Shown piece after piece: positions 42,001 to 61,195 of a stretch of 64,000 bases of DNA; within the stretch, counting starts at the first letter, position 1, and each line of letters begins with the position of its first letter. This DNA is from Auanema rhodensis (Eukaryota > Animalia > Nematoda). The notes under the pieces were generated by a model, which saw only the letters and a program-made list of their open reading frames with translations, was not told the origin of the DNA and did no database searches. The position numbers and the translations under genes were made by a program. Location of the stretch: assembly GCA_964057225.1 (NCBI GenBank), contig CAXKVF010000076.1, forward strand, positions 124,001 through 188,000, written 5' to 3'.

Positions 42001-44456
42001 TTGGTATGTAACTCGCTTCACGTGAAAGATAAAGAGATGCGGTTTTCAAAATTAGATTCCCCATGTCCATATTAGTCTAAAAACAAATTTTTATTGATAT
42101 TGGTGCATGGTAACCATGACTTTGAAATTTACGTGAACTTTAATTTATGCTAATTAAATGTACACGTGATGTGCACTTGGTATGTAACTCGCTTCACGTG
42201 AAAGATAAAGAGATGCGGTTTTCAAAATTAGATTCCCCATGTCCATATTAGTCTAAAAACAAATTTTTATTGATATTGGTTCATGGTAACCATGACTTTG
42301 AAATTTACGTGAACTTTAATTTATGCTAATTGAATGTACACGTGATGTGCACTTGGTATGTAACTCGCTTCACGTGAAAGATGAAGAGATGCGGTTTTCA
42401 AAATTAGATTCCCCATGTCCATATTAGTCTAAAAACAAATTTTTATACATATTGGTTCATGGTAACCATGACTTTGAAATTTACGTGAACTTTAATTTAT
42501 GCTAATTAAATGTACACGTGATGTGCACTTGGTATGTAACTCGCTTCACGTGAAAGATAAAAAGATGCGGTTTTCAAAATTAGATTGCCCATGTCCATAT
42601 TAGTCTAAAAACAAATTGTTATTGATATTGGTTCATGGTAACCATGACTTTGAAATTTACGTGAACTTTAATTTATGCTAATTAAATGTACACGTGATGT
42701 GCACTTGGTATGTAACTCGCTTCACGTGAAAGATAAAGAGATGCGGTTTTTAAAATTAGATTCCCCATGTCCATATTAGTCTAAAAACAAATTTTTATTG
42801 ATATTGGTTCATGGTAACCATGACTTTGAAATTTACGTGAACTTTAATTTATGCTAATTAAATGTACACGTGATGTGCACTTGGTATGTAACTCGCTTCA
42901 CGTGAAAGATAAAGAGATGCGGTTTTCAAAATTAGATTCCCCATGTCCATATTAGTCTAAAAACAAATTTTTATTGATATTGCTTCATGGTAACCATGAC
43001 TTTGAAATTTACGTGAACTTTAATTTATGCTAATTAAATGTACACGTGATGTGCACTTGGTATGTAACTCGCTTCACGTGAAAGATAAAGAGATGCGGTT
43101 TTCAAAATTAGATTCCCCATGTCCATATTAGTCTAAAAACAAATTTTTATTGATATTGCTTCATGGTAACCATGACTTTGAAATTTACGTGAACTTTAAT
43201 TTATGCTAATTAAATGTACACGTGATGTGCACTTGGTATGTAACTCGCTTCACGTGAAAGATAAAGAGATGCGGTTTTCAAAATTAGATTCCCCATGTCC
43301 ATATTAGTCTAAAAACAAATTTTTATTGATATTGGTGCATGGTAACCATGACTTTGAAATTTACGTGAACTTTAATTTATGCTAATTAAATGTACACGTG
43401 ATGTGCACTTGGTATGTAACTCGCTTCACGTGAAAGATGAAGAGATGCGGTTTTCAAAATTAGATTCCCCATGTCCATATTAGTCTAAAAACAAATTTTT
43501 ATACATATTGGTTCATGGTAACCATGACTTTGAAATTTACGTGAACTTTAATTTATGCTAATTAAATGTACACGTGATGTGCACTTGGTATGTAACTCGC
43601 TTCACGTGAAAGATAAAAAGATGCGGTTTTCAAAATTAGATTGCCCATGTCCATATTAGTCTAAAAACAAATTGTTATTGATATTGGTTCATGGTAACCA
43701 TGACTTTGAAATTTACGTGAACTTTAATTTATGCTAATTAAATGTACACGTGATGTGCACTTGGTATGTAACTCGCTTCACGTGAAAGATGAAGAGATGC
43801 GGTTTTCAAAATTAGATTCCCCATGTCCATATTAGTCTAAAAACAAATTTTTATTGATATTGGTTCATGGTAACCATGACTTTGAAATTTACGTGAACTT
43901 TAATTTATGCTAATTAAATGTACACGTGATGTGCACTTGGTATGTAACTCGCTTCACGTGAAAGATAAAGAGATGCGGTTTTCAAAATTAGATTGCCCAT
44001 GTCCATATTAGTCTAAAAACAAATTGTTATTGATATTGGTTCATGGTAACCATGACTTTGAAATTTACGTGAACTTTAATTTATGCTAATTAAATGTACA
44101 CGTGATGTGCACTTGGTATGTAACTCGCTTCACGTGAAAGATGAAGAGATGCGGTTTTCAAAATTAGATTCCCCATGTCCATATTAGTCTAAAAACAAAT
44201 TTTTATTGATATTGGTGCATGGTAACCATGACTTTGAAATTTACGTGAACTTTAATTTATGCTAATTAAATGTACACGTGATGTGCACTTGGTATGTAAC
44301 TCGCTTCACGTGAAAGATAAAGAGATGCGGTTTTCAAAATTAGATTGCCCATGTCCATATTAGTCTAAAAACAAATTGTTATTGATATTGGTTCATGGTA
44401 ACCATGACTTTGAAATTTACGTGAACTTTAATTTATGCTAATTAAATGTACACGTG
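1..44456. repeat. 176-bp tandem satellite DNA array, left arm (~252 head-to-tail monomers, continues beyond the window start)
   Basis: The monomer GTCCATATTAGTCTAAAAACAAATTTTTATTGATATTGGTTCATGGTAACCATGAC...GATTCCCCAT recurs at 1, 177, 353 and onward with a constant 176-bp period. Copies differ only by scattered substitutions. Confidence 0.99.
44451..44456. other. Left copy of 6-bp target-site duplication CACGTG
   Basis: The satellite normally reads ...AATGTA-CACGTG-ATGTGCAC.... Here AATGTA-CACGTG is followed directly by the element end AGTAGAGAG. Confidence 0.97.
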
Positions 44457-45520
44457 AGTAGAGAGCCATGCCGAATTTACTAACCACGCCCCCAAACAGT
44501 TGCTAAAAACATACTTTTGAGGGCGTCAGCTGCTAAAATCATACTTTTGGGGGCGTCAGCTGTCAAAATCATATTTTCGGCGTCAGCTGTCAAAAATATA
44601 CTTTTCCTCCCGAGGCAGGCTCTCGAGCCTGCGCATGAATCAAAATGCATGATTTTTTTTTTTAAAATTATTTTTTAATGTATTATTTTAAATGAATTTT
44701 TATTATTTATATATTTGTTAATTGTATTTGTAAATATTTTTAAACTTATTTCTTTTTAAATGAATTTTTATTATTAATATATGTTTTAAATATTATTATT
44801 TAATTATTTCTTTTTAAATGTATTTTATATATTTTTAAAATATTATTAAAATTATCTCCTTTTAAATGTATTTTTAATATTTATACATTTGAATAAACTT
44901 TTTAATATATATTGCTTTTGTTTTAATTTATAAAATTTGAATAAAATATATAAAAGCTAATTAATATGTTCACCGTACCTTTTATGGGTTAATCAATGGA
45001 ACTCATATCGAAGGTTAATTCGATAAGAAGTAATAAATATTTAAACTAAATTTAATGAAACACATATCGAAGGTTAATTCGATAAGATATATTTTATATA
45101 TTTATTTTTTAATTTTATTTGTTTACATTGTTTATAGATTGTGTTTATTATAGTTTATAATTATTAATTTAACTTTTAAAAAGTTTGTTGTTTATCTAGG
45201 CGAACCATTTTGTTCACCGTACCTATTATGGGTAAATCAATGGAACACATATCGAAAGTTAATTCGATAAGAACGATATGGAATACAAAAGTTAATGGAA
45301 CACATATCGAAGGTTAATTCGATAAGAACGATATGAAATACAAAAGTTAATGGAACACATATCGAAGGTTAATTCGATAAGATCGTTAAAACAGGTGCAC
45401 TGACCCACACATGTACCACATGGCAAAAGTTTTGTTCATAAAAATATGATAAATAGCTGTACAGCACAAGTACCCATAACGCTAACGAATACTTACTATG
45501 CCAAGGGGTCATGGGTATAT
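44457..45520 (+). repeat. Left terminal inverted repeat (near-perfect core 44457-44762, imperfect extension to ~45520)
   Basis: 44457-44762 matches the reverse complement of 60885-61189 apart from one indel in an A-run. Similarity resumes at ~44965-45087 and ~45381-45520 against ~60425-60683. Confidence 0.93.
44510..44606. repeat. Subterminal ~30-bp tandem repeats (CATACTTTT..GGCGTCAGCTG..AAAAT, about 3.5 copies), mirrored at ~61040-61136
   Basis: Read directly. GGCGTCAGCTG occurs three times in each TIR. Confidence 0.85.
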
Positions 45521-45791
45521 AGTTTTTAGTATCAAAAATGTTAATGGAACACATATCGAATATCAATTCGATAAGATTGGTGAAACAGATACGTTGACCT
45601 ACAATGAACCAAATGGCAAAGCACTTGTTCATTAAAGTATAACAAATAGCTGTATAGCATATGCATCAAGATTTCTAATATTCTCAAATTACTTGGAAAG
45701 AAGAGTATATAGAAAAAGTTTTAGTGTGTATATTACTAATATTCTAATACCCTAACTCAAAGAACACATATCGATGATTAATTCGATAAGA
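44995..45791. repeat. Cluster of seven ~34-bp palindromic repeats AATGGAACACATATCGAAGGTTAATTCGATAAGA
   Basis: Copies start at about 44995, 45054, 45239, 45294, 45349, 45543 and 45759. The core TATCGAA-N6-TTCGATA is a dyad. Two inverted copies lie in the right TIR (~60559-60651). Confidence 0.9.
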
Positions 45792-45951
45792 TTGTTGAAA
45801 CAGTTGCGCTGACCACAACAATACATGCGTATTTATTAACAGCGGATTGGCAACTGCCACTGTTGACAGCTGTAATATGATACAATGTTGAGTGTTGGCA
45901 ACATTGTTACGTGACAATAAAACAACTGACTGTTCTTGCAATGAAGTGTAA

Positions 45952-45957
45952 TATAAA
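45952..45957 (+). promoter_or_regulatory. Putative TATA box of the pPolB gene
   Basis: TATAAA lies about 70 bp upstream of the proposed ATG at 46023. Confidence 0.35.
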
Positions 45958-46022
45958 TGTGTAAAATGAAATATGGATAACTACCTCTCAGAGTTTGCAT
46001 AATTTTATTCTAACAAGATACA

Positions 46023-47302
46023 ATGGCTGCTAACAGGTTGTGTTTTTTCCTATCTTTTTTTTTTTTTAATTAAAATATTTATTTTCAGTTATAAGCGTGT
46101 ATGTGAAGAGTTGGGGTTCGATTATGAGGAAATTTATCAACTCAGGTAATTTAACAATATTTTTAAAATATACATCTTTGTTTTTTTTTTAGTAAGCGCA
46201 TAAAACTTACCGAGAGTGGTGGTGTTGAGCTGTGTGACCCCGCAATAACCACTTCCAATAGTGGTCCCTCGTCATCAAGGGTTATTGAAGTTATCACCTT
46301 GGATGACAGCGATAATGAGTAAGCTATCGTATAATGAAAAAGCATGAAATTTTTTTTTTTCAGAGAATGGAATCCCGAGATGCCATCAACTAGTGGAGAA
46401 CAATTAGGAGGCGGTTCATCCTTCAACGATATTTGTCAAATAAAGGTACGAGCTTTTAACTTTTTTTTTTTTTTCATGTTACAATTCTTTTCACTCTATA
46501 TCTTTTATTTGATTACATATCTTGAGCAATTTTGAATTCTGCCATCTATTTTTAAACAAATCATCATACATTTGGTGGCTTTTTGAAAAATAAAATAAAA
46601 TCTTATCCCAAATCCATGCCATAATATCATTTATTAAATTTTTATTCATTAAAATACACTTAAATTTAAATATTTTGATGCTCAAAAACTGACACATTTA
46701 AATATTTTGTATTTTTCAAATCATTTCACTCCATCTCTTTCATTTAATTTCATATTTTAAACAATTTTAAATTTTTACCACTACTTTATAATTTTTATTT
46801 ATTAAACTTTTTAATCATTAAATTACACTTAAATTTAAATATTTTGATGCGCAAAAACAGAAACATTTAAATATTTTGTTTTTTTTCTAAACCATTTCAC
46901 TCCATCTATTTTAAACAATTTTATATTTCTACCACTATTTCATAATTTCATTTTTTAAATTTTTAATCATTAAAAAAAAAACATTTAAATTTCAATATTG
47001 TGATGCTCAAAAACTGAAACATGAAATTGATTTATATTTTCTAAGCCATTTCACTTCATCTCTTTTATTTAATCACATATCTTGAACAAATTTAAATTTC
47101 TATCACTTTTTCATAATTTCGTTTATTAAATTTTTAATCACTAAAAAACATTTAAATTTCAATATTGTGATGCTCAAAAACTGAAACATTTAAATATTTT
47201 GTATTTTCTAAACCATTTCACTTCATCTCTTTTATTTATATATATTTTAAACAATTTTATAATTCTACTATTATTTAATTTTTATTTATTAAATTTTTAA
47301 AC

Positions 47303-47333
<31 letters not shown>

Positions 47334-50300
47334 TGATGCTCAAAAACTGAAACATTTAAATATTTTGTATTTTTCTAATCGTTTTGAAACAAACTAAACA
47401 TATATTTGAAAACATTTCAATTAAATAAAAAAAAATAACGACTATAACAAACAAAGAGACATAATAATTTTAAGCAAAAGATGAAACAATTCATATATAT
47501 TCTTAAAACTATTTTTATTTAAACTTTTAAAAATAAAAATAAAAAAAGCATGTAAACTGTTATAAATGTTGTTTATTATAGTGGTCACACCGGCGCATAA
47601 AACGCACCGGTCGTTTTACCAACGTGGTCGTTCGATCGCTCACGTTCCCACACTTGGAAAATGTTGATGAACCAATGCATGTTATCATGCCGCGGTTATT
47701 CAACGAATTCCTTGATCGTTGTCTTGCTGAAAGCGGTGTGCCTGATAAGCAAAAAGCCTTATTTTGTTTATCAATTGAGCACCCTTCCTTTGAAAAGGGC
47801 TCCATATTTATGGACTTTCGTAGAAGGGAGCATCTGGATGGCGTAGCCATTATGAATGCCATCAGCAAGGTGCAGCAATCAAAACGAGAGGCTGTGATCA
47901 GCCAGGCAATGAATATTGAGATGTATGTGTTTGATGAAAGGCCAGCGCAGCCAAGCCTGATGCCTGGTGAAGGTAGAGTCGGGTTTTATTTTGACCCCGA
48001 ACTCAAAATACCTGGAACCATTGCCAACACTGACTCACATTGTCTGGCTAGATCAGCAGTTGTGGGAATGTGGAAAGCTGACGAGCTGGCCACTGAAGAT
48101 GGCGATGAGAAGCGAAGGCTGCAAAACCTTCGTCGCAATTACATCTTATTGCCAAATCAGCCACACCATATCAATTTATTAAATAGGTGTGGTATTTCTG
48201 TAGATTTACCAAATTATAATTTAATTCATTTAAACATTATTGCCAGCTGTAATACAAACTATAAGTTTGTAGTATATGCTAGACCGCCTGGACAGCGTAT
48301 GTACACTATCCAGAAAATATTTAATGAAGCGGCTAGCAAATTGGTAACACTAGGTTACCGAAATAATCACTATGATTGTATTACAGCTGGTAGTCGTTCG
48401 AAAATTTTTGATGGTATTATATGTCAACACTGTAAGTTATCTTACAATACAGTGTTGCATAGATGTAAAGCCAAATGTAAAAAATGCCACACCTATAATT
48501 GTAATGCGATGGGGAATGTGGTTGAGAGTAGCGTGAGGTGTGATAGTTGTAGAGTTTTGTTTAAAACTCAACAATGCTTCGATAGGCATTTGCGAAAAGC
48601 CTGCCGAAAATTCAAGGTATTTTGTGAAAATTTAAAGTTGTACATAACAAGCTTAAATTCAGACATATGTGGCGTGTGATCACTATCACATGGTCCGTGC
48701 TGATAGACCGCACAATTGCAATGAAAAATTCTGCAAAAAGTGCGGTCAGACAAAGCCTGAAGAGCACTCTTGTTGTTGGGTTCCACCTAACGACAAGAAG
48801 AAGGCTCAGCTAAAAAAGAAGCAAGAAAAGTTCAAGGTTTGTATTTAACATCTTTACAAGTGTAATGCTTACTTGTTTAAGATTATATTTTATGACTTTG
48901 AAACAGTTGTGTTAAAAAACGGCACAAATGTTCATGAATATGCAGATGAACAATGGCCCAATATGGTTGTGTATAACAAATTTTGTGAAAGTTGTATAGA
49001 TGCCAATTCCTGTGAGAAATGCACAACCAAGGAGGGCCATTTTGGGTACCAACAAGGTGATAGTGAATGGTCTGTAACAGATCGTTTCCTTGATTGGTTA
49101 CTCAACTTTTCTGAGAATGATAATGCAATTTTGATTGCGCACAACGGGTCGCGCTTTGACATACATTTCTTGGTGTCTAGGCTGATAAACCGTGGAATAT
49201 ATCCTGACCCCATTTTAAATGGGACCAAGATTATTAGCATGGTTGTCAAGCCATTAAGAGGTCAAAACATTAACCATTTATGTTTTAAAGATAGTTATTT
49301 ACTAGTGCCTTTACCCTTATCAGCGTTACCCAAGGCATTTGGTGTACCTGATATGAGTAAAGGACAATTCCCATACCTCTTTAACCACCCAATAAATTAT
49401 GGCAAAGTGCTACCATCCTTGCCACCAAAGCATTACTATTGTACTGCTAGAATGAAAGCAGAAGACCTAGCTTCATTCAATATTTGGTATGAGGAGCGTA
49501 ATCAAAGTGTGTTTGATTTTGATGAGGAGCTTCTGGAATATTGTAGGACAGATGTCCGTATTTTAACCAACTGTATGAAAGTGTACATGAAGTTGGCAAC
49601 CGCCACCACTGGCTGGAATCCTGTCATACAATGTATGACATTTGCCAGTTTCTCTTTATTCCAGGCAAGTTTTTTAAAATACAAGCATTTTCAAAACTAG
49701 TATATTACAGTTGAAAATGAACCACATTAAAGAGAACCAAGTGGGTATTCTGCCTGAGACTGGTTATTATGCCGGCCAGAAGCAGAGTATAATTGCCATA
49801 AAATACATTAAATGGCTAGAACACGGATTAGGCCGCCCATTAATGCATAAGCTTAATGGTGGTGAATTTGTTGTGCGAGTAGATGGCCAACGCTATCTAC
49901 TTGATGCTTATGACAGTGTGGCTAATCACGGCTATGAGGTGAGTAATTTGTAATAAATGTAAAAAATGATAAAATTTTGTAGTTTAATGGCTGTATTTAT
50001 CATGGTTGCCCCCAGTGCACCAACAAGACTGCTATTGCACCAGGCAGAAATGGTGAAACAATGGAAGAGGTAAGCAATACTTTTTTAATCATTTTAAGCT
50101 GAAACATTTAGGTTTATGAAAAAACCATGAAAAGGCTTGAGGCTATTCAAAGCCAGGGCATTAGTGTAACCACTGTGTGGGAACACGAAATTACTGCTCA
50201 AATGTCATCAAATGAGCAAATGGCAAATTTTATGAAGGACACTGAGGTTGTAACTCGATTGGCACCTCGAGATGCCTTCACCGGCGGCCGAACTCAAACA

Positions 50301-51811
50301 TATAAGCTTCTGGCCCAAGCTTCGGATAGATACTCACTAGAGTATGTGGACTTTTGTTCACTTTATCCATATGTAACGGCATTTGATGCCTATTACCCTG
50401 TGGGTAATCCTAAAGTGATTACTGAGGGCTTTGAGAGTTTTGAGGCATGCTGCCCATACAAGGGCCTTGTGAAATGTGACGTGCTTGCACCCACAAATTT
50501 GATGTATCCTGTATTAGGAACACGCATAGGCGGTAAATTAATTTTTACAAACTGCCGCACATGTGCAAACAGAGGCAAAAATGTAACATGCCCGCACCAA
50601 GATGATGAAGACGCTCGAAAGCTGCATCTGACTGTAACGCATGTAGAGCTCGAATGTGCCATACAGCGTGGCTACAAAGTGCTTCATGTTTATGAGGTTT
50701 GGCACTGGGATGAATGGCAGCAAGGCGGCCTATTCAAGGATTTTGTACAAAAGTACATAAAAATTAAGCAAGAGGCATCGGGCTGGCCTAAGCCAAATAT
50801 GACAGAGGCTGAAAAGGTATGTGTCATGAAAAGTATGGCATTAAATAGAATTTTACAGCTAAAATATCTCCAAGAGCACGAGGAGAACACTGGTGTTGCT
50901 CTGGATAGCAACAAAATTGAAAAGAATGCGGCCATGCGTAGCATTGCCAAACTACAGCTGAATAGGTATGTAAACTTTTAAAAATAAAAATTTACAAATT
51001 TGTTTATAGTGTATGGGGTAAAATGGGTCAAAGACCGGATAAAGCCCAAACCAAGATTATTGGTGTTGAGGATCCTGAAATTGGTAGGATCATAACTGAT
51101 CCTGCAAGGGAACTCACGGGCTTCAAAATTGTGGACGATGTGGCGTACTGTACAACAGTGCCAGAAGACTCACACCTGGCACCAGCGCCGTTTACAAATG
51201 TAGCCATAGCGGCTTATACAACCGCTCATGCAAGGCTACTATTGTATAAGGCAATGGAAAAAATTGGAAAGAACTTGGTGTATACAGGTAATTTTATACT
51301 TTGTATACAATTTAAACGTACATCATTTAGACACCGATTCTCTAATTTATTTAAAATGCCTCGATCAGCCTGATCCAATTGAGGATATGAAGGGTGAATG
51401 GTTAGGTAAACTAACCTCAGAAATACCCGATGGTTGGTCAATGACCAAATTTGTTTCACCAGCTGCAAAAGTTTATAGTTATGAGCTAGTAAATGCAGCT
51501 GGTCAGGTCAAGTATATCACCAAGGCAAAGGGAGTGGTAAGTATAAAAATATATTATTGAGAAACTTTTTAAAATTACAGACGCTGGACCACACGGCAGC
51601 CACCGTGGTAAACTATCAAAGTATGGAGCGATTGGTTCGAGGACTCGTGATGGATGGAGAAAAATTGGTTTTAAAAACCAAAACAACGTTATTAAAGAGG
51701 CAGCTTGGTGCCATATCCACAATGGACATGACAAAGAGTACCAAGGTCGTAATGGATAAACTTTGTTATCTAGACGATTTTAGTACTTTACCCTATGGTT
51801 ATTGTGAATAA
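46023..51811 (+). CDS. polB: Protein-primed family B DNA polymerase precursor (N-terminal/terminal-protein region, OTU-like protease, Zn fingers, 3'-5' exonuclease, Vsr-like insert, polymerase); 14 exons, ~1370 aa
   Basis: Exons: 46023-46036, 46089-46145, 46193-46318, 46364-46445, 47582-48616, 48663-48836, 48882-49664, 49711-49938, 49983-50069, 50112-50816, 50859-50965, 51010-51287, 51331-51536, 51581-51811 (4113 nt, phases consistent, no internal stop). Motifs: ExoI YDFET, ExoII HNGSRFD, ExoIII YCRTDV, motif A DFCSLYP, motif B KLQLNSVWGK (across intron 11), motif C YTDTDS (across intron 12), KAKGV and C-terminal LPYGY. Exons 1-4 are less certain than exons 5-14. Confidence 0.92.
46500..47380. 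repeat. Degenerate AT-rich ~167-bp tandem repeat (about 5 units) plus a 28-nt poly(A), inside pPolB intron 4 (46446-47581)
   Basis: The anchor TGATGC(T/G)CAAAAAC(T/A)GA(A/C)ACAT occurs at 46676, 46845, 47001, 47168 and 47334 (spacings 169, 156, 167, 166). The A-run spans 47306-47333. Confidence 0.85.
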
Positions 51812-51899
51812 TTTTTAATATATTTGAATTTATAAATTTTATTATCGCGTGTATATTTGTATATGGTTGTATTTATAGATTTTTATGTATAGTTGTATT

Positions 51900-51942
51900 A
51901 ATAAATTTTATTCTTCTCATCAAATGTTTTAAAGAGTTTATT
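51900..51942. terminator. Back-to-back polyadenylation signals between convergent pPolB and major capsid genes
   Basis: AATAAA at 51900-51905 on the + strand; TTTATT at 51907-51912 and 51937-51942, which read AATAAA on the - strand. Confidence 0.5.
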
Positions 51943-51949
51943 ACATACA

Positions 51950-53176
51950 TTACAAACTGGTATCAATATATGGAGCACGATTGTTGTCAATTGAAAGAAT
52001 AGAGTCATATTCTGCATAAACAATAGCATATAAACCCTCTTGCGGCGTTTGTTGACCAAATTCCAATTTCAGGGCCACATTACCTTGTCGTATAACATCA
52101 AATAACTCGGACGAGTGTACAGTCGGTGAAATATCAAATACAAAAAATGTGAAGCCGGTTTTATACATTGCTGGTGTAATACCATTGGATGAATCTGTAC
52201 GACCAAGACCCAAACCCTCCAACATGTCAATATATGCTGTGGCATAGGAAGAACGCCATTCTAAATTATAAGGGCGGGTAGGTATTACCCGATTGTTGAG
52301 CGTCAAGTATATATTTTTCAATTCAAACGGTTTAAAGTTGAATGGCGAATGTTTAAAAGTACCATTATAGGCGTGTGCGCCGACAAGACCTACTACAACA
52401 CGTTTCGGTGTATGCGACGTGAATAATATGTTATTGGGTGAATCCAAACGGCCTCCTTCTATGAAATAAGAGCGCATTTTCACTGACGTCATGGGGTAGT
52501 GTATTCGTTCCTTTACAAGTTTATCTTCTATAGCCATAGCTAATCCAGCGTTTAGATCAAACTCTTGAATAAGCAAGTGCACATCGTTGATATCTATTTT
52601 CAGGTTTGGAAACTCCTCCTTCATTGCAGCATCCTTGCTTTCATTATTCCATCCAAGTGTGTCAATTAAGAAATTATCACGGTTTGGATATGCAGTTAGC
52701 TCCATTTTTGAATAGTTTACAAACAGTCGTTCCTGATTGAATTTGACGCCTGATATGGCAAGTTTGCTCTCTTTAACATCGTTGCTATACATTAGAATAT
52801 TCTCAATATATGTTTTGTAGGCATGATTTACGGTAGAGTCATACACGCTAACATCACCAATTTTTAAATGATACGAGTGTATCAAACTGGCTGCAAATTG
52901 TTGGCATGGTGCAAAAACAAGGTTGTCTGGTACTGGATCACCGTTTGTGGTTACAATTTTGAATTTTACATTCAACCAACACCTTCTCAGATTAAGAAAT
53001 GATTTGGAATTTTGGGCTATAACAAATTCCCATGGTCCTTGAGGAAGAAAAGTATTTTTTAAAGGAACTTGTACAGTACGAGTGGATTCAACACCTAATG
53101 CCGACGCCGGTATGTCACTATAATTAATATTAGGTAAAAGTGCTTGTGCTGATTTTGAATCTATCAATTTAGCCAT
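51950..53176 (-). CDS. Double jelly-roll major capsid protein (Polinton PY type), 408 aa
   Basis: Recognisable Polinton MCP blocks: GPWEFVI, PKRVVVGLV..AYNG.FKHSPFNFKPF, GFTFFVFDISP, GNVALKLEF, IVYAEYDSILSID. Confidence 0.9.
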   Translation of the reverse strand: MAKLIDSKSAQALLPNINYSDIPASALGVESTRTVQVPLKNTFLPQGPWEFVIAQNSKSFLNLRRCWLNVKFKIVTTNGDPVPDNLVFAPCQQFAASLIHSYHLKIGDVSVYDSTVNHAYKTYIENILMYSNDVKESKLAISGVKFNQERLFVNYSKMELTAYPNRDNFLIDTLGWNNESKDAAMKEEFPNLKIDINDVHLLIQEFDLNAGLAMAIEDKLVKERIHYPMTSVKMRSYFIEGGRLDSPNNILFTSHTPKRVVVGLVGAHAYNGTFKHSPFNFKPFELKNIYLTLNNRVIPTRPYNLEWRSSYATAYIDMLEGLGLGRTDSSNGITPAMYKTGFTFFVFDISPTVHSSELFDVIRQGNVALKLEFGQQTPQEGLYAIVYAEYDSILSIDNNRAPYIDTSL

Positions 53177-53629
53177 TTAAATACGATACGACCGCTCACG
53201 AGTTATGCACAGACGCTTATGAGGTTTTGTGGTTTTGCGTCGTCGCCGCTTGCCCAAACCGGTAAGATCTCGTATAGCCTGCCGGCCGGCTGTTTTAAGA
53301 GTTTGCTTGATATTATCGCCCTTGAGCACCCCATCAACAATTTCATTGCTAGTTTTTAGCAACTGGCCGCCAAGAGGTGAATTTACAACTGGACTATTGC
53401 TTACAGCACTGGATAATGCATTCCTTCCAGCATTGATGAGATTTTGGGCTATAGGTGATTGAATAATGCGTGGTAAAAACGATGCCAATGTTGCCAGTAT
53501 ACCACCCAGGCCATGACCTCTCTGCATACCACGTTGAAACATCATTCCACTAAATGGCGCCCCACCCATTTGTTGATTCAAAAGTGTTGTCCATTGAATT
53601 GAGTTCAAGTCTAGAAGGAGGTGTGGCAT
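53177..53629 (-). CDS. Gly-rich virion core/membrane-lytic (adenovirus pVI-like) precursor, ~150 aa from ATG 53629
   Basis: QRGHG is followed by an amphipathic helix LGGILATLASFLPRII, and the C-terminus is basic (LTGLGKRRRRK). The gene abuts the MCP gene. The functional label is an inference. Confidence 0.7.
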   Translation of the reverse strand: MPHLLLDLNSIQWTTLLNQQMGGAPFSGMMFQRGMQRGHGLGGILATLASFLPRIIQSPIAQNLINAGRNALSSAVSNSPVVNSPLGGQLLKTSNEIVDGVLKGDNIKQTLKTAGRQAIRDLTGLGKRRRRKTTKPHKRLCITRERSYRI

Positions 53630-53679
53630 ATTGAACCGCACGTGCGCAATACAAAAGTTACACTAGATCATTTTACTAA

Positions 53680-54135
53680 ATGTATTCGTCTGAAATAGCG
53701 TCACTATTGCGATCTGTCCGCATCACTCGAAAACTATTCCTCGGTGTATTTAGCGCGGATACTCTACCCAAAACACGTCGAAAGAACTTTGCACTTGTTG
53801 TAAATACTGACACACACGATAAACCGGGCACACATTGGCAAGTCATCTTTGTACGTAATGATCAAGCCTACTTTTTCTGTAGCTTGGGTTATAAAATGAA
53901 CAAGTACATTCGTCATTATCTGGCCAAATATAAAAATGTAAAAGTTAATACTTGCAAACCACAACGCATAATTGAATACACTTGTGGTGGTTATGCAATA
54001 TTTGTAATACTAATGTTGTCAGCTGGTAATACATTTGAAAGCATTTGTTCATTTTTTAAACTATTACAAAACGATGATGTCTTTATTAAAGCGTTTATGC
54101 ATAAAGTATTCGACTATAAATTATCTAGCATATGA
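53680..54135 (+). CDS. Adenain-like (clan CE) cysteine maturation protease, 151 aa
   Basis: VNTD...PGTHW (catalytic His) and PQ.....TCGGY (oxyanion Gln, catalytic Cys), with the N-terminal FLGVFSADTLP block typical of Polinton proteases. Confidence 0.9.
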   Translation: MYSSEIASLLRSVRITRKLFLGVFSADTLPKTRRKNFALVVNTDTHDKPGTHWQVIFVRNDQAYFFCSLGYKMNKYIRHYLAKYKNVKVNTCKPQRIIEYTCGGYAIFVILMLSAGNTFESICSFFKLLQNDDVFIKAFMHKVFDYKLSSI

Positions 54136-54393
54136 TCAACCTCGCCATTAAAACGTCACCTGCTACATTAGGTGGTCAGTTATGAATATTCCCTGTCACT
54201 GTGAATTATGTATAAGATACACGTTGGAACAATCTGTGCCAACACCCCTGTACAAAAAGATTTTGAAACGTATTTCAGTGCCATTCATTAAAGGAATATC
54301 TCTGGGACTAGGCTTTTGTACAACACTAGTCATTATTCCACTCATTATATAAAAGTGAGTTGACTGTGTGTGGTTGTTTTTTATTTTCCTCTA

Positions 54394-54858
54394 ATGGAAC
54401 TTTTATGTAACAAGTATTGTGTTACGTGCAAGGAAATATTTTCATCAGCCAAGCATTTTAGTGATCACGTATTAAAAAGACATGACGGGATTCAACCCGT
54501 ATGTAACAGTTATATCAGCAATGCTGACTTTATTCAAAAATATGGACATTTGGATGGTGTTCGTAGACGTTTGTGCCCTTATTGTAGTGAAACTTTTGGA
54601 ACAAGATTCAATTGTCAGCGTCATATTCGGCGTCTTCATAATAGTAATGGAACGAATGGTAAAGATGGTGATGGAAATGATACCAGCGAACCCTCTGAAA
54701 AAACTGAGGAGTTTGTACAGTCAACCGAACCAAAACGATGCCGCTGCAATAGTAACCGAGAATATTCACAACACGAGCCGCGCATCGAACAAAACGGCGC
54801 TGAACTACCTTTTAAACCTTCGAAAATCGTAATGTGGTCTTGTATAACTGTTGAATAA
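54394..54858 (+). CDS. C2H2 zinc-finger protein (two fingers), ~154 aa
   Basis: CVTC-x12-HVLKRH and CPYC-x12-HIRRLH. TATATAAAAG lies at 54346-54355 upstream of ATG 54394, and AATAAA overlaps the stop. Confidence 0.8.
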   Translation: MELLCNKYCVTCKEIFSSAKHFSDHVLKRHDGIQPVCNSYISNADFIQKYGHLDGVRRRLCPYCSETFGTRFNCQRHIRRLHNSNGTNGKDGDGNDTSEPSEKTEEFVQSTEPKRCRCNSNREYSQHEPRIEQNGAELPFKPSKIVMWSCITVE

Positions 54859-54863
54859 AACAT

Positions 54864-55721
54864 TTATTTCACATTTTTAACATGTAATGTAACAACTGTA
54901 GAACCATAATTAAATTGCATAGGGCGGCCAAATTCATCTAAAATTTCAATACGTATAGTATCGAGTGTTTGCTTAGTGATTGGTACATAACGAATAGGAT
55001 TAAATGTTTTGGCAATCATTTTACCAAATTCGGTGGGAGGTGGTACAGGTAAACATGCAAGTAAATTAGCTTTCACATTACCGAGAATGGAATATTCTAC
55101 AATATCACAATATATATACATTGTATTAATGTTATTTGAAAAATCAATGGGGCGCCTGGCTATTAACGTGTCGTTGATAATTTTATTCTCAAAGCCAAGA
55201 AAATATGCGAGAGCATCACCGAGTGTTGCATTCAATAATAGCCGCTTACTTGTTACAAACTCTATGCGTTGTAGTGTTTTGTTAAATCGAAACGTGGCGT
55301 CTGCCAGCATTTCCTTGACAAGTTTAGCCTCAGCTTGTCGATTATTATACCACTTTTTCACATCTTCATCTTTATCTATCAAACCCTTTATACGTGCTTC
55401 TTCCTCAGCTCCAAGAGGTTTAGTGCTGCTAGCAATAAATTGTTCTTTTCCAGCATTGATTCCGCGTATTATTTCATCACCATTTGCATAGTTACCTTTG
55501 GGCAAGTGCAGAATAAACTTTCTGTTGGAAAAACGTAGTGTATAAGAAAGATTTTCTTGTACATTTAATATCGAACACGGAAAAATTATGTCTGTCAGCC
55601 CAATGCAATATCTGTTATTGCGTAGCCTTAATGTTTCAGGTAACCTGGTAAGAAACACTGATGAGGTATTACTTTTTTCAGAGTCAACTGATGACGGCAA
55701 AGTAATGTAAAAGTCATCCAT
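54864..55721 (-). CDS. Minor capsid protein/penton (Polinton PX type), 285 aa
   Basis: Starts MDDFYITLPSS..N....F.TRLP and contains IGLTDI, YIYCDIVEYSILGN...LL, and IRIEILDEFGRPMQF....VVTLH. Confidence 0.9.
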   Translation of the reverse strand: MDDFYITLPSSVDSEKSNTSSVFLTRLPETLRLRNNRYCIGLTDIIFPCSILNVQENLSYTLRFSNRKFILHLPKGNYANGDEIIRGINAGKEQFIASSTKPLGAEEEARIKGLIDKDEDVKKWYNNRQAEAKLVKEMLADATFRFNKTLQRIEFVTSKRLLLNATLGDALAYFLGFENKIINDTLIARRPIDFSNNINTMYIYCDIVEYSILGNVKANLLACLPVPPPTEFGKMIAKTFNPIRYVPITKQTLDTIRIEILDEFGRPMQFNYGSTVVTLHVKNVK

Positions 55722-55800
55722 CAGAGACCACCACCTGATGCGTGCACACTAGTATAAATGAAATCATTTGCATTATAGGTACATTTACGAGTGGTTGATT

Positions 55801-56448
55801 ATGGTTTTCAGCTTCAAACTACCCAGTCAGACAACTGTAATAGGGGCAACGCAATGTGGTAAAACTACCCTTATAAAACGTATATGTGAAAATACTGAAA
55901 AGTTTTTCAACGTCCCCATTGATAGAATATTCTGGTTCAGTCAATGTGGTACATCGTCAGGTGTTCCATTAAATGATGAGCGTTTAATAGTTATTCAAGG
56001 ACCACCTGATCCGGATATAATAAAAGAGCAAAAGGGAGTAAACACCATACTAGTGCTGGATGATTTGATGAATTTTTTCTCATCGAATAAAGCGGCTAAA
56101 GAATTACTCAACAACATTTTTACAGTGTGGGCACATCACTGGAATTTGGCAGTGTTTAATCTTGTGCAAGCTGCATTTCAGCTAGACAGGACCAGTCGAA
56201 TTAATAGTACATATATAATACTGATGAAAAGTCATTCGGATATATTACAAATACGTAATTGTCTGCAACAATTATTTGGCCCCCGCTTTAAAAATGCTCT
56301 AGAAGCATATGATGATGCAATGTCTACACCCTATAGTCATTTACTGATTGACAACCATCCTTTAACAAATGAGAAACAGCGTATACTATCAGATATAACA
56401 GCGGAGCACCCTATTGTTTATGTAGCCAGAAATATATTCAGTGTTTAA
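55801..56448 (+). CDS. A32/FtsK-like genome-packaging ATPase, ~215 aa
   Basis: Walker A GATQCGKTT, Walker B LVLDDLM, HH.NL.VF.LVQ, R.NSTYIIL and PYSHLLID. Confidence 0.92.
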   Translation: MVFSFKLPSQTTVIGATQCGKTTLIKRICENTEKFFNVPIDRIFWFSQCGTSSGVPLNDERLIVIQGPPDPDIIKEQKGVNTILVLDDLMNFFSSNKAAKELLNNIFTVWAHHWNLAVFNLVQAAFQLDRTSRINSTYIILMKSHSDILQIRNCLQQLFGPRFKNALEAYDDAMSTPYSHLLIDNHPLTNEKQRILSDITAEHPIVYVARNIFSV

Positions 56449-56460
56449 TGTGCATGTTCA

Positions 56461-56769
56461 ATGAGTGGTCGTATTTTGTCAAATTACAACTTTTTATCTT
56501 CTTGTGCCAAAACCCCTTGTTCTGTTTCCTCATTTTCTTTTTCACAAATTGAAATTATTGTTGAAATTGTATTTAATATTGTGAAAAATAATAATTTTCT
56601 CTTAACTAACAAGGAATATAAAACCCTTTTGCCCATATCCTCATTATTACGTCAAATAGCTTTGATACGCACACCCGAAAAGGCTAAAACTTTATTGGCA
56701 ACGATTTCACACAAACAATTGAAAACAATAGTTTCATGCGGAATTGCTTATTTTGGTTTTAAAAGATGA
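56461..56769 (+). CDS. Small hypothetical Polinton protein, 102 aa
   Basis: Tightly packed between the ATPase and the next ORF (ATGA overlap). The IVEIVFNIVK..LT..E block resembles the small conserved Polinton ORF found near ATPase and integrase genes. Confidence 0.7.
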   Translation: MSGRILSNYNFLSSCAKTPCSVSSFSFSQIEIIVEIVFNIVKNNNFLLTNKEYKTLLPISSLLRQIALIRTPEKAKTLLATISHKQLKTIVSCGIAYFGFKR

Positions 56770-57503
56770 AACTCAATCATAAATATCGTCTAATCCCTGT
56801 TGATGATGAAACGCTGAATATAGACAAGTTTGATGCTGAATTGAAGCTCTTACGAGAGAATAAATCTATACCCGATTATAAAAAGGCTGAACTATACGAA
56901 GACTTGATTACCCGTCTCAAAAACTATAGAGAAAGCATAGATGCGCCTATATCAGTACAAGTGGAAAATGCTGATCCACCATTATTGCCAGAATACAAGC
57001 TGCCACGAAAGTATAACGATCTGTGGGAAAGATTTCCAGAGGTGCGTACAAACAAAAATAACCAACTTGTGATTAATAATGAGCCCGTACCAAACACAAA
57101 TATTACAAAAATTTTGGATTTTGTACTGGATAAAACAAAGACGGAACCCAATGGATTCTCAGTATTAGCCAAATTCTTAGCCAGTAATGGGGTCTCTAGC
57201 CCTAACAAGAAGGCAAAAAATGTAGAGCCTGCCGTCAGTAACAAGGATTCAGTTGATCCCGTGCCTACATCCACATCGGCTGTCACAGACTTGGATGCTA
57301 CTATTAATATATTACCTAGAACACCACGTCATCGTAAGGCTGTTATTCGATATTCACCCTCTCCGCGTCGTACATTCAAATCCAAAGCTATAAATAAAAA
57401 GGCAAAACCCGCTGACACTGGTGAATCATATTACACACCTCAGGCGGGAGAAACACAGAATGGCAAAGGCCGTAAACGATTCTACATTAGATTATGGAAG
57501 TAA
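56766..57503 (+). CDS. Hypothetical Polinton protein upstream of the integrase, 245 aa, with a basic Ser/Pro/Arg-rich C-terminus
   Basis: Long ORF overlapping both neighbours, with a KYRLIP start, an INNEPVPNTNITKIL..PNGF block and a QNGKG motif near the C-terminus. Confidence 0.75.
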   Translation: MKLNHKYRLIPVDDETLNIDKFDAELKLLRENKSIPDYKKAELYEDLITRLKNYRESIDAPISVQVENADPPLLPEYKLPRKYNDLWERFPEVRTNKNNQLVINNEPVPNTNITKILDFVLDKTKTEPNGFSVLAKFLASNGVSSPNKKAKNVEPAVSNKDSVDPVPTSTSAVTDLDATINILPRTPRHRKAVIRYSPSPRRTFKSKAINKKAKPADTGESYYTPQAGETQNGKGRKRFYIRLWK

Positions 57504-58527
57504 TGTTTTGGAGAACATTTATTATAATATTAAGCATCCAGCTTCTTATACGTCTGCCAAAAATCTATTATTGGAAGCGCGAAAGCATGGCATCGCAAAA
57601 GCACAAGTTGAAAGTTTTTTGCAAGACTCTGAAACTTTTACACGTCATAAACCAACCAGACTGCATATGCAGACTAAAAAGACTAGAGGCTGTGGTCGAT
57701 TCCTAACAATGCAAGCAGATTTGGTTGATATGCAAAAATATAAAAAATCAAATGACGGCTATGCTTACATGTTGACCATGATTGATGTTTATACACGCAT
57801 GTTATATGTTAGGCCTTTGAAAACTAAAGGTGGTTTAGAGGTTGCTACTGCATTTGAAAATGTATTCAAGGATTTTATACCAATCCAACTAATAACGGAT
57901 AACGGTGCAGAGTTTTATAATAGTCATTGTGAAAAACTATTCAAAAAATTTGCCATACTGCATGGATCAACAAGTTCACCACAAAAGGCGGCAATGGTGG
58001 AGCGAGCAAATAGAACTTTAAAAACGCGCATGATGAAATATCTCTATTACAAGAATAATCATCGATGGATAGATATACTAGATGACTTGGTCGAAGGAAT
58101 AAACAAATCTTATAATCGGTCGATTAAAATGCGCCCCGTAGATGTTACAGCAAATATATTCGTTGAAGAATATGCACCAGCTGTTCGCAACCGATTCAAA
58201 ATTGGTGATAATGTTCGCATAAGCAAGAACAGGCGTACTTTTGAAAAAAGTTACGAGTCTGGATATACAATGGAACTATTCACAATTGATGAGATTGTAG
58301 CCGGGAACCCAACCGTGTATAAACTTGTAGATTATAATGGTGAACGTATAAAGGGAATATTCTATGAGCCTGAACTTGTGTTGGCTACTAATAAAAGCAA
58401 CCAGTACTATATTGAGAAAGTTTTGAAAGAGCGTACACGAAATGGTAAACGCCAAGTATTTGTAAAATGGAGTGGCTATCCCGACAACTTTAATGAATGG
58501 ATAGATGCAGAAAATTTAAATGTATAA
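57460..58527 (+). CDS. int: Retroviral-like (RVE) DDE integrase with C-terminal chromodomain, ~355 aa
   Basis: QADLVDM (D), ITDNGAEF (D), AMVERANRTLK (E), YN...RSIKMRP.DV, and chromodomain YYIEKVL...FVKWSGYPDNFNEWI. Confidence 0.95.
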   Translation: MAKAVNDSTLDYGSNVLENIYYNIKHPASYTSAKNLLLEARKHGIAKAQVESFLQDSETFTRHKPTRLHMQTKKTRGCGRFLTMQADLVDMQKYKKSNDGYAYMLTMIDVYTRMLYVRPLKTKGGLEVATAFENVFKDFIPIQLITDNGAEFYNSHCEKLFKKFAILHGSTSSPQKAAMVERANRTLKTRMMKYLYYKNNHRWIDILDDLVEGINKSYNRSIKMRPVDVTANIFVEEYAPAVRNRFKIGDNVRISKNRRTFEKSYESGYTMELFTIDEIVAGNPTVYKLVDYNGERIKGIFYEPELVLATNKSNQYYIEKVLKERTRNGKRQVFVKWSGYPDNFNEWIDAENLNV

Positions 58528-58825
58528 TTTTTCACTGTTGTTGTAAACAATTGTATTAATAATAAATGATTTATTTGATCAATCGTTCATATTGTAACAA
58601 TAAAAAACCAGCAAAACATAAAAGCCAAGACAATGATATAACCTATAATTATAAACTGATTAATATTTAAATTTTCAATGCTTACCAGTTGGTTTGAGAG
58701 TCGGCTGTTGATGGATAATTTCAAACTTCAAGAGCTGGAAAAAAAAAATGTTACGGCTAAGAAAATTTAAATATAACATAACAAAATCAACCAACTATCC
58801 ATTAAACAGTTTGTGCTTGTTGTAG

Positions 58826-59419
58826 TCAAAACGATGGATCAAAACGGATAAGCATATTCAAGTTGAGCGCCTGTTGACTTAATTTAAAGTAGAACACATT
58901 CTGCTTATAACCAAAAGACTTGACAGTTGACTCATCAGTATAAATGGCAATGTAACCCATATTATTCAACAATTGTTTTGATGACATGCTAGAATAGGAA
59001 CGCATCTGTAAAAGAAAAAATAATAATTAGAATTAATAATTTTATAATCTCACATTGATTGTTGAATTTTCAGGTTTATAATGACGGAAAACTTTTAAAA
59101 GCCCTAAGGCATCATTCCTCGCTCTACACTTGACACAGAGGCTGAAACAGTGGTACTCGTCTACGACTTGCAATGTATCCCTACAAGTTTTGCAGAGACA
59201 TATTGGTCTCATAACTACAGGCTGTTGTGGAGAGCTATCCTTTGAGATTTGTACCTGCTTTTTTGGTGTGTCTAAACAAAAAATAATTAATAACAAAAAT
59301 AAAACCTTACCAAAGAATGTGGCAGCAAAGTTGGGTCCTGGTGTGGGTGGTCTTGGAACATCCGGTTCCGGTGTCGAAGGTACAATATTCTCTACATCAA
59401 CAAGAGCGGAACGCTTCAT
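58826..59419 (-). CDS. Spliced accessory gene: Pro-rich N-terminus plus Cys/His Zn-binding region, ~168 aa
   Basis: Proposed exons 59419-59311, 59271-59054 and 59005-58826, with GT-AG introns of 39 and 48 nt. Contains CLCKTC-x10-HCFSLCVKC. TATAAAAG lies at ~59705-59712 on the - strand. Confidence 0.55.
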
Positions 59420-59519
59420 GTTTGTAGCCCAATTGGAGGCTTTTCCTAAACAACAACGAACTTTTACGTCTAGGGTCCAAGTAGAGTAGAGGATAGTCCT
59501 AGCAGCAGTCTGTTGACGT

Positions 59520-59670
59520 TGGATCAGATCGTCGGCTTGTTGGCAGAGGTGGATCGGCGAGAAGACTTGGTGGCGGAGCTGGATCGGAGAGTAGACTTGT
59601 TGACAGAGCTGGATCGTAGAGTCGACTTGTTGACAGAGCTGGATCGTAGAGTCGACTTGTTGGCGGAGCT
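59520..59670. repeat. GC-rich 30-bp tandem repeat, 5 copies (TGGATCGTAGAGTCGACTTGTTGACAGAGC)
   Basis: TGGATC recurs at about 59520, 59550, 59580, 59610 and 59640. Confidence 0.92.
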
Positions 59671-60424
59671 GAAATACAAATTTCGGTCTAAAAAATTTTG
59701 CCACCTTTTATACAAACTTTGTTGTAAAGCTCTACCCACTCCGCCTCTTTCACAAAACAGTTGACTGCTGTATGCGGCTTTTCTATTTGTTATATATTAC
59801 AACAAATATATGCATTTATACATTAATTAGCAGTTTGTTGCGCAAACAGCTGCCAAATGCGCTAAAATACACCGATTGCGCCAACAGTTGCCGGATTAAC
59901 AACCTGTAAACTATCCGCTTATTAATTACTTGTTACATCATTCGATTTCGTAAATACAAATATTTAACAATAATTCAACTCATTTGTGACAAGTCCCTAT
60001 ACAATAACAACTGTCATCCAAAATTGTGGAAGATTACAATAGGATCGTTTAATATTGTATTCATATTCTTATTATAACAGCTGTGGTACACTCTTACTTT
60101 TATAGTTTAGGAAACACTAATTCAAAATGTTGGATCCTACTGAGGAAACGCAGGATTGTTGCGAAAAACAGACTTGTACACATCCGATTACAAGTACAAC
60201 ATTTCCAGACACTTTGTAAAAAAGAAACTCTTACAAAATGTTAACACATGTTCTAATTTTAAATGAAAATTTATTGTTCAATAAATATATTACGAAACAT
60301 TTATTCTATTCTTGAACATAGTTATGAAATACATTAGCTATCAGAACATTTATAAACTATTAGGGCTACAACAACAATTACTTTAAAGTAACATTTTTGA
60401 TGTTAAAAAGTTTGAAAATATTCG

Positions 60425-61189
60425 TATATACTCATGACCCCTTGGCATAGTAAGTATTCTTTAGCGTTATGGGTACATGTGGTGTACAGCTATTTATCAT
60501 ATTTTTATGAACACGACTTTTGCCATGTGGTACATGTGTAGTGCACCTGTTTTAACGATCTTATCGAATTAACCTTCGATATGTGTTTCATTAAATTTAG
60601 TTTAAATATTTATTACTTCTTATCGAATTAACCTTCGATATGAGTTCCATTGATTAACCCATAAGAGGTACGGTGAACATATTGATTACCTTTTAAATTT
60701 ATTTAAATAATTAAAAACAATATATATGAGAAATAATTTATTCAGTTTTAAAGATACAATTAAAAAATATATAAATATTAAAATACATTTAAAAAGAAAT
60801 ATTATTAAAAATATATTTAAAAAGAAACAATTAAATAATAATATTTCCAAATACAATTTAAAATATATATAAATATTAAAAATACATTTAAAAAGAAATA
60901 AGTTTAAAAATATTTACAAATACAATTAACAAATATATAAATAATAAAAATTCATTTAAAATAATACATTAAAAAATAATTTAAAAAAAAAAATCATGCA
61001 TTTTGATTCATGCGCAGGCTCGAGAGCCTGCCTCGGGAGGAAAAGTATATTTTTGACAGCTGACGCCGAAAATATGATTTTGACAGCTGACGCCCCCAAA
61101 AGTATGATTTTAGCAGCTGACGCCCTCAAAAGTATGTTTTTAGCAACTGTTTGGGGGCGTGGTTAGTAAATTCGGCATGGCTCTCTACT
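60425..61189 (-). repeat. Right terminal inverted repeat (near-perfect core 60885-61189)
   Basis: Reverse complement of the left end, lacking the ~290-bp block found at left 45088-45380. Confidence 0.93.
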
Positions 61190-61195
61190 CACGTG
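61190..61195. other. Right copy of 6-bp target-site duplication CACGTG
   Basis: ...CTCTCTACT-CACGTG-ATGTGCACTTGG resumes the satellite in exact register. Confidence 0.97.

Follow-up and report, generated by a model that had tools for sequence, protein, structure and literature searches.

A stretch of 64,000 nucleotides (nt) of Auanema rhodensis DNA (contig CAXKVF010000076.1, positions 124,001 to 188,000), hereafter the window, contains a complete Maverick/Polinton element, in which the gene for the protein-primed family B DNA polymerase (pPolB) is split into 14 exons by 13 introns. We hold with good confidence that this is a real, probably functional, heavily spliced pPolB in an otherwise ordinary element, and the replication of the element is likely to depend on host splicing. 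The preliminary description of the DNA had proposed both real spliceosomal introns in a Polinton pPolB and this dependence; the reading frame, the collinearity of homologs, and the skipping of two introns in assembled contigs support the proposal. An element with a complete structure and an open 13-intron polymerase, with nine other open reading frames (ORFs) free of introns, is not matched by the Maverick core genes described in the literature searched.

All 13 introns are present at the lengths originally proposed (Table 1). The joined exons comprise 4,113 nt, corresponding to 1,370 codons and a stop codon, and contain no in-frame stop. Twelve introns have GT-AG ends, and intron 7 has GC-AG ends with an otherwise perfect donor, a deviation absent from the preliminary description. 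The donor −1 position is G in 12 of the 13 introns, and the acceptor −5 position is T in all of them, the latter being a nematode trait. Exonic AG precedes 11 introns, and eight are in phase 0. The GC content is 0.42 in the exons, whereas it is 0.21 in the 12 short introns. The GT/GC-AG ends, the donor and acceptor consensus, and the restoration of the frame upon removal are those of U2-type spliceosomal introns. Retention would bring in a stop codon inside the intron in 10 cases and shift the frame in the cases of introns 5 and 12, leaving intron 10 (42 nt) as the sole intron whose read-through could be tolerated. As first described, intron 11 interrupts the codon for the motif B Ser, and intron 12 interrupts that for the first Asp of motif C.

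The length of intron 4 is due to approximately five copies of an AT-rich 154–167-bp tandem unit and an A28 run. The terminal-protein fold begins in the first residues of exon 5, ahead of the first ATG in this exon, and an upstream exon is therefore needed. An alternative in-frame ATG is located at 46380 in exon 4 and, judging from the sequence, could act as a start codon without exons 1–3. A control filter for introns, built after the introns were known, recovers 11 of the 13. The same post-hoc filter gives 13 donors in exons 5–14 against a mean of 3.1 in shuffled sequences, but it also gives 10 antisense candidates and is hence a weak control. Two candidates, the lowest-scoring ones, are found by this filter in the nine other ORFs.

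The intron positions were compared with homologous proteins. A search with exon 7 provided six longer proteins, and a search with exon 10 provided the best 150 of 4,021 hits, giving a set of 156. Forty-four homologs of at least 1,180 residues were aligned to the pPolB exons with an X at each junction, after one protein (P0006) was excluded as too distant. At the sites of introns 5–13, all 44 full-length homologs are collinear with the joined exons, with a median of 0–1 residue at each site; a single homolog shows the greatest excess, which amounts to 10 residues at junction 6. Homologs that read through the intron positions, the observation that would contradict splicing, are not found at these nine junctions. 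A motif resembling QLGGG in exon 4 is found near the corresponding place in 12 of 37 homologs.

The catalytic exonuclease and polymerase motifs of pPolB are all present, and the homolog profile matches phi29 polymerase (E = 4e-8). The predicted fold of exon 5 is a terminal protein followed by an OTU protease (pLDDT 80). In structure comparison, the exon matches OTU (Z = 10.2, root-mean-square deviation 3.5, 129 aligned residues) and the Y-family little finger (Z = 6.6). The combination of a terminal protein and OTU is given as a pPolB architecture in PMC11071308. A Vsr-like motif lies in exons 8 and 9 and is shared by 65 of 90 long homologs, though the profile match of the insert to Vsr structure chains is weak (E = 0.08–0.11). 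The named relatives closest to the capsid and the polymerase are nematode proteins. In the pPolB tree (104 rows), the support near the query is low (0.80, then 0.29) and leaves the origin of pPolB unsettled. A Caenorhabditis brenneri pPolB in the homolog set (P0020) also carries the Vsr-like motif, whereas PMC10748475 reports VSR pPolBs from one marine nematode only. Three Steinernema isoform models lack conserved stretches, which is no proof of introns.

Three runs with the same species label (X1, X2, and X3) were used for transcript evidence, their kind, RNA, being a guess. Two X1 contigs skip precisely intron 11 and intron 13 at GT..AG. Both represent sister copies, with 8 differences in 136 nt (94% identity, depth 3.6) and 26 differences in 208 nt (87.5%, depth 2.4); sister-copy contigs are 88–94% identical to the pPolB in the window. 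The fits of contigs end at the start of exon 9 (X2) and at the start of exon 11, which is a hint for introns 8 and 10. An 800-nt X2 contig (three differences in the 625 nt shown) skips three minus-strand introns of the cargo gene of the element, and the runs thus hold spliced RNA of the element family. A contig on exon 10 has 29 differences; of the 21 listed, 18 affect the third position of a codon, a pattern that purifying selection would produce. Exons 1–7 have no contig cover in X1–X3, and X3 has no contigs, which has no bearing on expression.

The distribution of introns in the element should be noted. pPolB has 13 introns in 4,113 nt, whereas no intron occurs in the 6,222 nt of the nine other ORFs, which are single frames of about full length (p = 6e-6, assuming uniform placement). 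The introns of the element are restricted to pPolB and the cargo gene. The preliminary description had emphasized introns inside catalytic motifs. Introns 11 and 12 are indeed placed there and sit in the top 3% of conservation, but a preference for such sites is not significant for pPolB alone: none of nine tests of bias to conserved sites reaches significance (p = 0.09–0.57; 0.09–0.21 for introns 5–13).

The relatives of pPolB provide a different view of the position of intron 11. Among the best 150 of 4,021 relatives, 133 extend beyond exon 10, and 63 of these end early. Thirty-seven of the 63 stop within 10 residues after the last aligned residue. A 12-residue window at motif B contains the ends of 17 of these 37, where 1.8 are expected (p = 2e-13; 1e-8 if the expected number is doubled). 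The last residues fit read-through of a GT donor: N-R in seven proteins, N-S-stop in one, W-stop in four, W-V-S in one, and L-V-S-T in one. Eight of the relatives ending at motif B match the position of intron 11, and the rest imply neighboring ones, so that at least four different positions are represented among proteins that are 29–60% identical to one another. These protein ends suggest that motif B may be a repeated intron hotspot in the relatives, and this is the lead most worth pursuing. Two relatives at 54–55% identity end in K-V at the site of intron 10. P0042 and P0083 end as would be expected if introns interrupted the codons for the first and the second Asp of motif C, respectively; the position for P0042 matches that of intron 12. 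When viral and metagenome contigs were scanned with pPolB or capsid queries, no pPolB locus of the end-shortened relatives was obtained; five metagenome contigs obtained with the capsid query (1.3–2.1 kb, 20–31% identity) are too short and too distant.

An origin of the introns from introners was considered and rejected. The best pairwise score among the 12 short introns is 24, against a shuffled mean of 23.3 (p = 0.41). Boundary repeats resembling target sites are not in excess at the intron ends (p = 0.065), intron 7 alone having 8 of 10 matches. Since neither shared intron sequence nor an excess of boundary repeats is observed, the introns were probably gained singly and not by an introner burst.

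The following course of events would account for the gene. Host RNA polymerase II would transcribe pPolB in the nucleus, and the spliceosome would remove the 13 introns to give one chain of 1,370 residues, composed of the terminal protein, vOTU, exonuclease, Vsr-like, and polymerase parts. The product would then prime and copy the linear element, as proposed for other pPolBs. The introns would have been gained one by one into an ancestrally intron-free gene. Their accumulation would have been confined to pPolB and the cargo gene, which stand alone as transcription units, and would have spared the packed capsid/ATPase/integrase block. As for the reason why the introns have been kept, splicing might let a 4-kb foreign frame be expressed in a germline where foreign transcripts are silenced if unspliced. 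This explanation is tentative and has somewhat less than an even chance of being correct. We place it first because introns hinder nuclear RNA interference in C. elegans, according to PMC5554785, and because the element lies in satellite DNA.

Several observations weigh against a spliced, functional gene or against its advantage in the germline. The same paper, PMC5554785, also shows a host helicase overcoming the intron barrier and names a yeast in which unspliced introns trigger silencing. A PATC-like 10-bp A/T periodicity was searched for in the long intron 4 and is not found there. In exons 1–4, homology is not reliable (the mean column conservation is 0.11), so the homologs cannot test the junctions there, and these exons have no read support. 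Of the pPolB junctions, joints are called at only 2 of 13. The transcript check that the preliminary description had called for is mixed: introns 11 and 13 are skipped (X1), whereas one X2 contig spans intron 9 unspliced, with T>A at the donor +2 position and a net shortening of 8 nt, and all of these contigs are from sister copies. The pPolB of the copy in the window is not among the contigs of X1–X3, and the spliced contigs come from one run at low depth. As the RNA kind is guessed, the intron-skipping contigs may be intron-free DNA copies. Finally, the putative major capsid gene, which belongs to a conserved family with relatives found, lacks approximately 36 residues (near 52744) that are present in seven of seven aligned relatives, with the frame kept. 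The capsid of this copy is probably damaged, and the copy may not be fully autonomous. The X2 contig over intron 9 could itself represent DNA, RNA that was left unspliced, or a sister copy that has decayed.

The introns could instead be harmless passengers that accumulated nearly neutrally while the element was inherited vertically for a long time in a host rich in introns, a possibility that we consider plausible but would not assume. The other genes would then be intron-free owing to packed, possibly polycistronic late transcripts, or pPolB would have been swapped in from another lineage. The host-sized introns, the frequent phase 0 and preceding AG, the mutual dissimilarity of the introns, and the lack of a significant bias to conserved sites all agree with such accumulation, and the exchange of pPolB between Polintons is documented in PMC10748475. 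However, 3.2 introns per kb in pPolB against none in nine neighbors demands an extra assumption, and the pile-up of protein ends at motif B in the relatives is unexpected from random gain.

Alternatively, the gain of introns could be driven by a nuclease. The fused Vsr-like endonuclease would cut polymerase-motif DNA in rival or own copies, repair would insert sequences, and those inserts that can be spliced would survive and shield the site. Such a process would be a spliceosomal counterpart of the arms race that introns and homing endonucleases wage in the polymerase genes of phages. The occurrence of the Vsr-like motif in pPolB and in most long homologs, as well as the motif B ends fitting GT donors, are in its favor. 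PMC11071308 terms such inserts homing endonuclease domains, and PMC11296320 describes collaborative homing. On the other hand, 11 of the 13 introns lie elsewhere than in motifs B and C, including five that precede the exonuclease, and boundary repeats are not in excess. Moreover, the end-shortened relatives are known from proteins alone, the activity and specificity of the nuclease are hypothetical, and the conserved G-rich codons (AG|G, TG|G, and GG|G) may merely be good insertion sites. We regard a nuclease-driven gain as unlikely. Less likely again is an extended form of it, in which animal Polintons with the Vsr nuclease would constitute a large overlooked intron-bearing class, their own nuclease would drive repeated gains at the motifs with the introns acting as shields, and the 13-intron gene would be an extreme case.

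A decayed pseudogene or an assembly artefact, with a merely coincidental spliced model, is very improbable and largely refuted: the damaged capsid gene, the unspliced intron 9 in one sister contig, and the degraded state of most Mavericks in vertebrate genomes (PMC8097293) point that way, but all 13 gaps have splice ends and leave a single stop-free frame with every catalytic motif, the homologs are collinear, and two gaps are skipped exactly in contigs.

The spliced pPolB lies in an element with the usual structure of Mavericks/Polintons. The terminal inverted repeats (TIRs) are within the 100–1,500-bp range and have AG-type ends, and the target duplication and the total length are within the ranges of 5–8 bp and 13–25 kb, respectively. 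The protein-primed family B polymerase with the N-terminal terminal-protein and vOTU domains and the retroviral-type integrase are present. The packaging ATPase (P-loop families) and the protease (Peptidase_C5) have Pfam matches below the curated cut-offs but stand in the expected setting. Intronless core genes, a descriptive trait and not a taxonomic criterion, are seen in the nine other ORFs and not in pPolB. The empty insertion site matches 250 satellite units at three or fewer mismatches. The clean flanks, the 6-bp duplication, and the 99% identity of the outer TIRs point to a recent insertion.

In the literature searched, spliceosomal introns in an animal Maverick pPolB are not found described, although older accounts or supplements may mention spliced pPolBs. 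The available portions of PMC12220804, PMC11296320, PMC8502044, 10.64898/2026.10.13.758929, PMC8504770, and PMC9356565 describe no intron-bearing animal Maverick pPolB. The earlier statement that spliced pPolBs are known in some hosts thus finds no counterpart in the literature searched, save introner insertions in dinoflagellate elements (PMC12166617). According to bioRxiv 10.1101/2022.07.12.499685, the core genes of nematode Mavericks lack introns, which are restricted to the cargo, and PMC8097293 saw no introns in intact vertebrate Mavericks. The latter elements share the end-motif type, the 6-bp duplication, and the core gene set with the element here.

The nematode Mavericks surveyed in PMC10748475 are among the closest systems. 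They likewise have TIRs, a 6-bp duplication, genes for pPolB, integrase, ATPase, protease, and putative capsid proteins, and an intron-bearing cargo beside a TIR. Their core genes have been described as intronless, whereas the pPolB here has 13 introns, and no fusogen-sized ORF is found in the element here. The VSR-domain pPolB2 of Trissonchulus latispiculum and molluscs in the same survey likewise carries an endonuclease-like insert between the exonuclease and the polymerase, with E-F-x-G-C-x-x-H-G; the comparison is by description, and these pPolB2 were chosen as uninterrupted ORFs and are said to occur in one marine nematode only. The survey set a minimum of 900 aa for pPolB ORFs and took fragmented ORFs as pseudogenes. 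The longest ORF piece of the pPolB here is 365 aa, which supports the earlier expectation that automated pipelines would probably reject it as a pseudogene; with such short pieces, the gene would be discarded by surveys expecting intron-free genes.

In dinoflagellates, polinton-like elements also contain spliceosomal-type introns, but the introns there are copies of transposons that generate introns, lie for the most part outside coding sequence, and occur in elements whose integrity is unclear (PMC12166617). The 12 short introns here have no sequence in common, and they all lie in a single open gene, in an animal host.

Host splicing is also used by adenovirus, which belongs to the same supergroup and is a nuclear virus: in its E2B polymerase mRNA, short leader exons are spliced to the polymerase frame. 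The body of the adenovirus polymerase is, however, a single exon, whereas nine introns are located inside the conserved body here.

Mavericks are the main candidates for nematode DNA viruses and proven gene carriers between species, and they have been described and sought as intron-free. A possibly large class of active elements is lost to ORF-length filters (900 aa), which would bias copy numbers, host ranges, and trees. With a 13-intron polymerase, the replication gene has to be expressed in the nucleus with the aid of the host spliceosome, and this constrains models that assume a helper-virus cytoplasmic life. The gene also appears to be a clean case of de novo intron gain, the ancestral gene being taken as intron-free and the neighbors in the same element serving as controls. 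The possible hotspot at motif B makes it testable where and why new introns arise.

Table 1. Features of the Maverick/Polinton element and its pPolB gene, in window coordinates
Feature	Position	Strand	Description
Maverick/Polinton element	44457..61189		complete, 16.7 kb, AGTAGA...TCTACT ends, within a 176-bp satellite array
Target-site duplication	44451-44456 (left), 61190-61195 (right)		CACGTG, 6 bp, flanking the element
Left TIR	44457..45521		outer 225 nt 99% identical to right arm; AT-rich inner part ~90%
Right TIR	60425..61189		pairs with left arm
pPolB gene	46023..51811	+	14 exons, 1,370 codons; terminal protein, vOTU, Cys/His-rich region, exonuclease, Vsr-like insert, polymerase
Exons 1-4	46023-46036, 46089-46145, 46193-46318, 46364-46445	+	93-residue leader, QLGGG motif; predicted from sequence
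Intron 1	46037..46088	+	52 nt, GT-AG, phase 2
Intron 2	46146..46192	+	47 nt, GT-AG, phase 2
Intron 3	46319..46363	+	45 nt, GT-AG, phase 2
Intron 4	46446..47581	+	1,136 nt, GT-AG, phase 0
Exon 5	47582..48616	+	terminal-protein domain (residues 12-120; resembles the Y-family little finger), vOTU (136-273), then Cys/His-rich stretch
Intron 5	48617..48662	+	46 nt, GT-AG, phase 0
Intron 6	48837..48881	+	45 nt, GT-AG, phase 0; Exo I motif three codons downstream
Exon 7	48882..49664	+	exonuclease region; Pfam DNA_pol_B_2 (PF03175), E 2e-21
Intron 7	49665..49710	+	46 nt, GC-AG, phase 0
Intron 8	49939..49982	+	44 nt, GT-AG, phase 0; within Vsr-like E-F-x-G-C-x-x-H-G motif
Intron 9	50070..50111	+	42 nt, GT-AG, phase 0
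Exon 10	50112..50816	+	polymerase motif A region; Pfam DNA_pol_B_2 (PF03175), E 3e-16
Intron 10	50817..50858	+	42 nt, GT-AG, phase 0
Intron 11	50966..51009	+	44 nt, GT-AG, phase 2; motif B Ser codon
Intron 12	51288..51330	+	43 nt, GT-AG, phase 1; motif C first Asp codon
Intron 13	51537..51580	+	44 nt, GT-AG, phase 0
Putative major capsid protein	51950..53176	-	single ORF, 408 aa
150-aa ORF	53177..53629	-	single ORF; abuts capsid gene
Adenovirus-like cysteine protease	53680..54135	+	single ORF; Pfam Peptidase_C5 E 0.0013, under curated cut-off
C2H2 zinc-finger ORF	54394..54858	+	154 aa; in core block; covered by X2 contigs
Putative minor capsid protein	54864..55721	-	single ORF, 285 aa
P-loop (packaging-type) ATPase	55801..56448	+	single ORF, 215 aa
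Two overlapping ORFs	56461..57503	+	single ORFs, 102 and 245 aa; no family matches
Retroviral-type integrase	57460..58527	+	single ORF, 355 aa, C-terminal chromodomain; rve E 3.4e-9, Chromo E 2.9e-8
Intron-containing cargo gene	58560..59760	-	introns 59272-59310, 59142-59184, and 59006-59053 skipped in an X2 contig >99% identical

The remaining genes of the element are listed in Table 1. The 408-aa ORF is taken to be the major capsid protein from synteny and size, and the 285-aa ORF is presumably the minor capsid protein; Pfam gives no match for either. The 150-aa ORF is assumed to be of the small amphipathic virion-protein type. The core ORFs adjoin or overlap at 53176–53179, 54855–54866, 56766–56769, and 57460–57503, as a stop followed by ATG or an ATGA overlap. 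The abutting intron-free ORFs suggest that their expression may be coupled or operon-like.

The cargo gene contains five 30-bp Pro/Ser-rich repeats and a Cys-rich part. Other contigs over this gene show longer skips or a diverged paralog.

The 176-bp satellite around the element is very uniform, with 267 overlapping matches and 98–100% identity in the 30 shown, and the insertion is at the palindrome CACGTG. The chromodomain of the integrase could direct the element to heterochromatin. A motif of 34 bp, in which the two halves of a palindromic core are separated by a spacer (ATCGA...TTCGAT), is present seven times at the left end (45007–45790) and twice at the right end (60563–60640). The left copies reach to within 250 bp upstream of the pPolB start, and the motif may be where a replication or regulatory protein binds.

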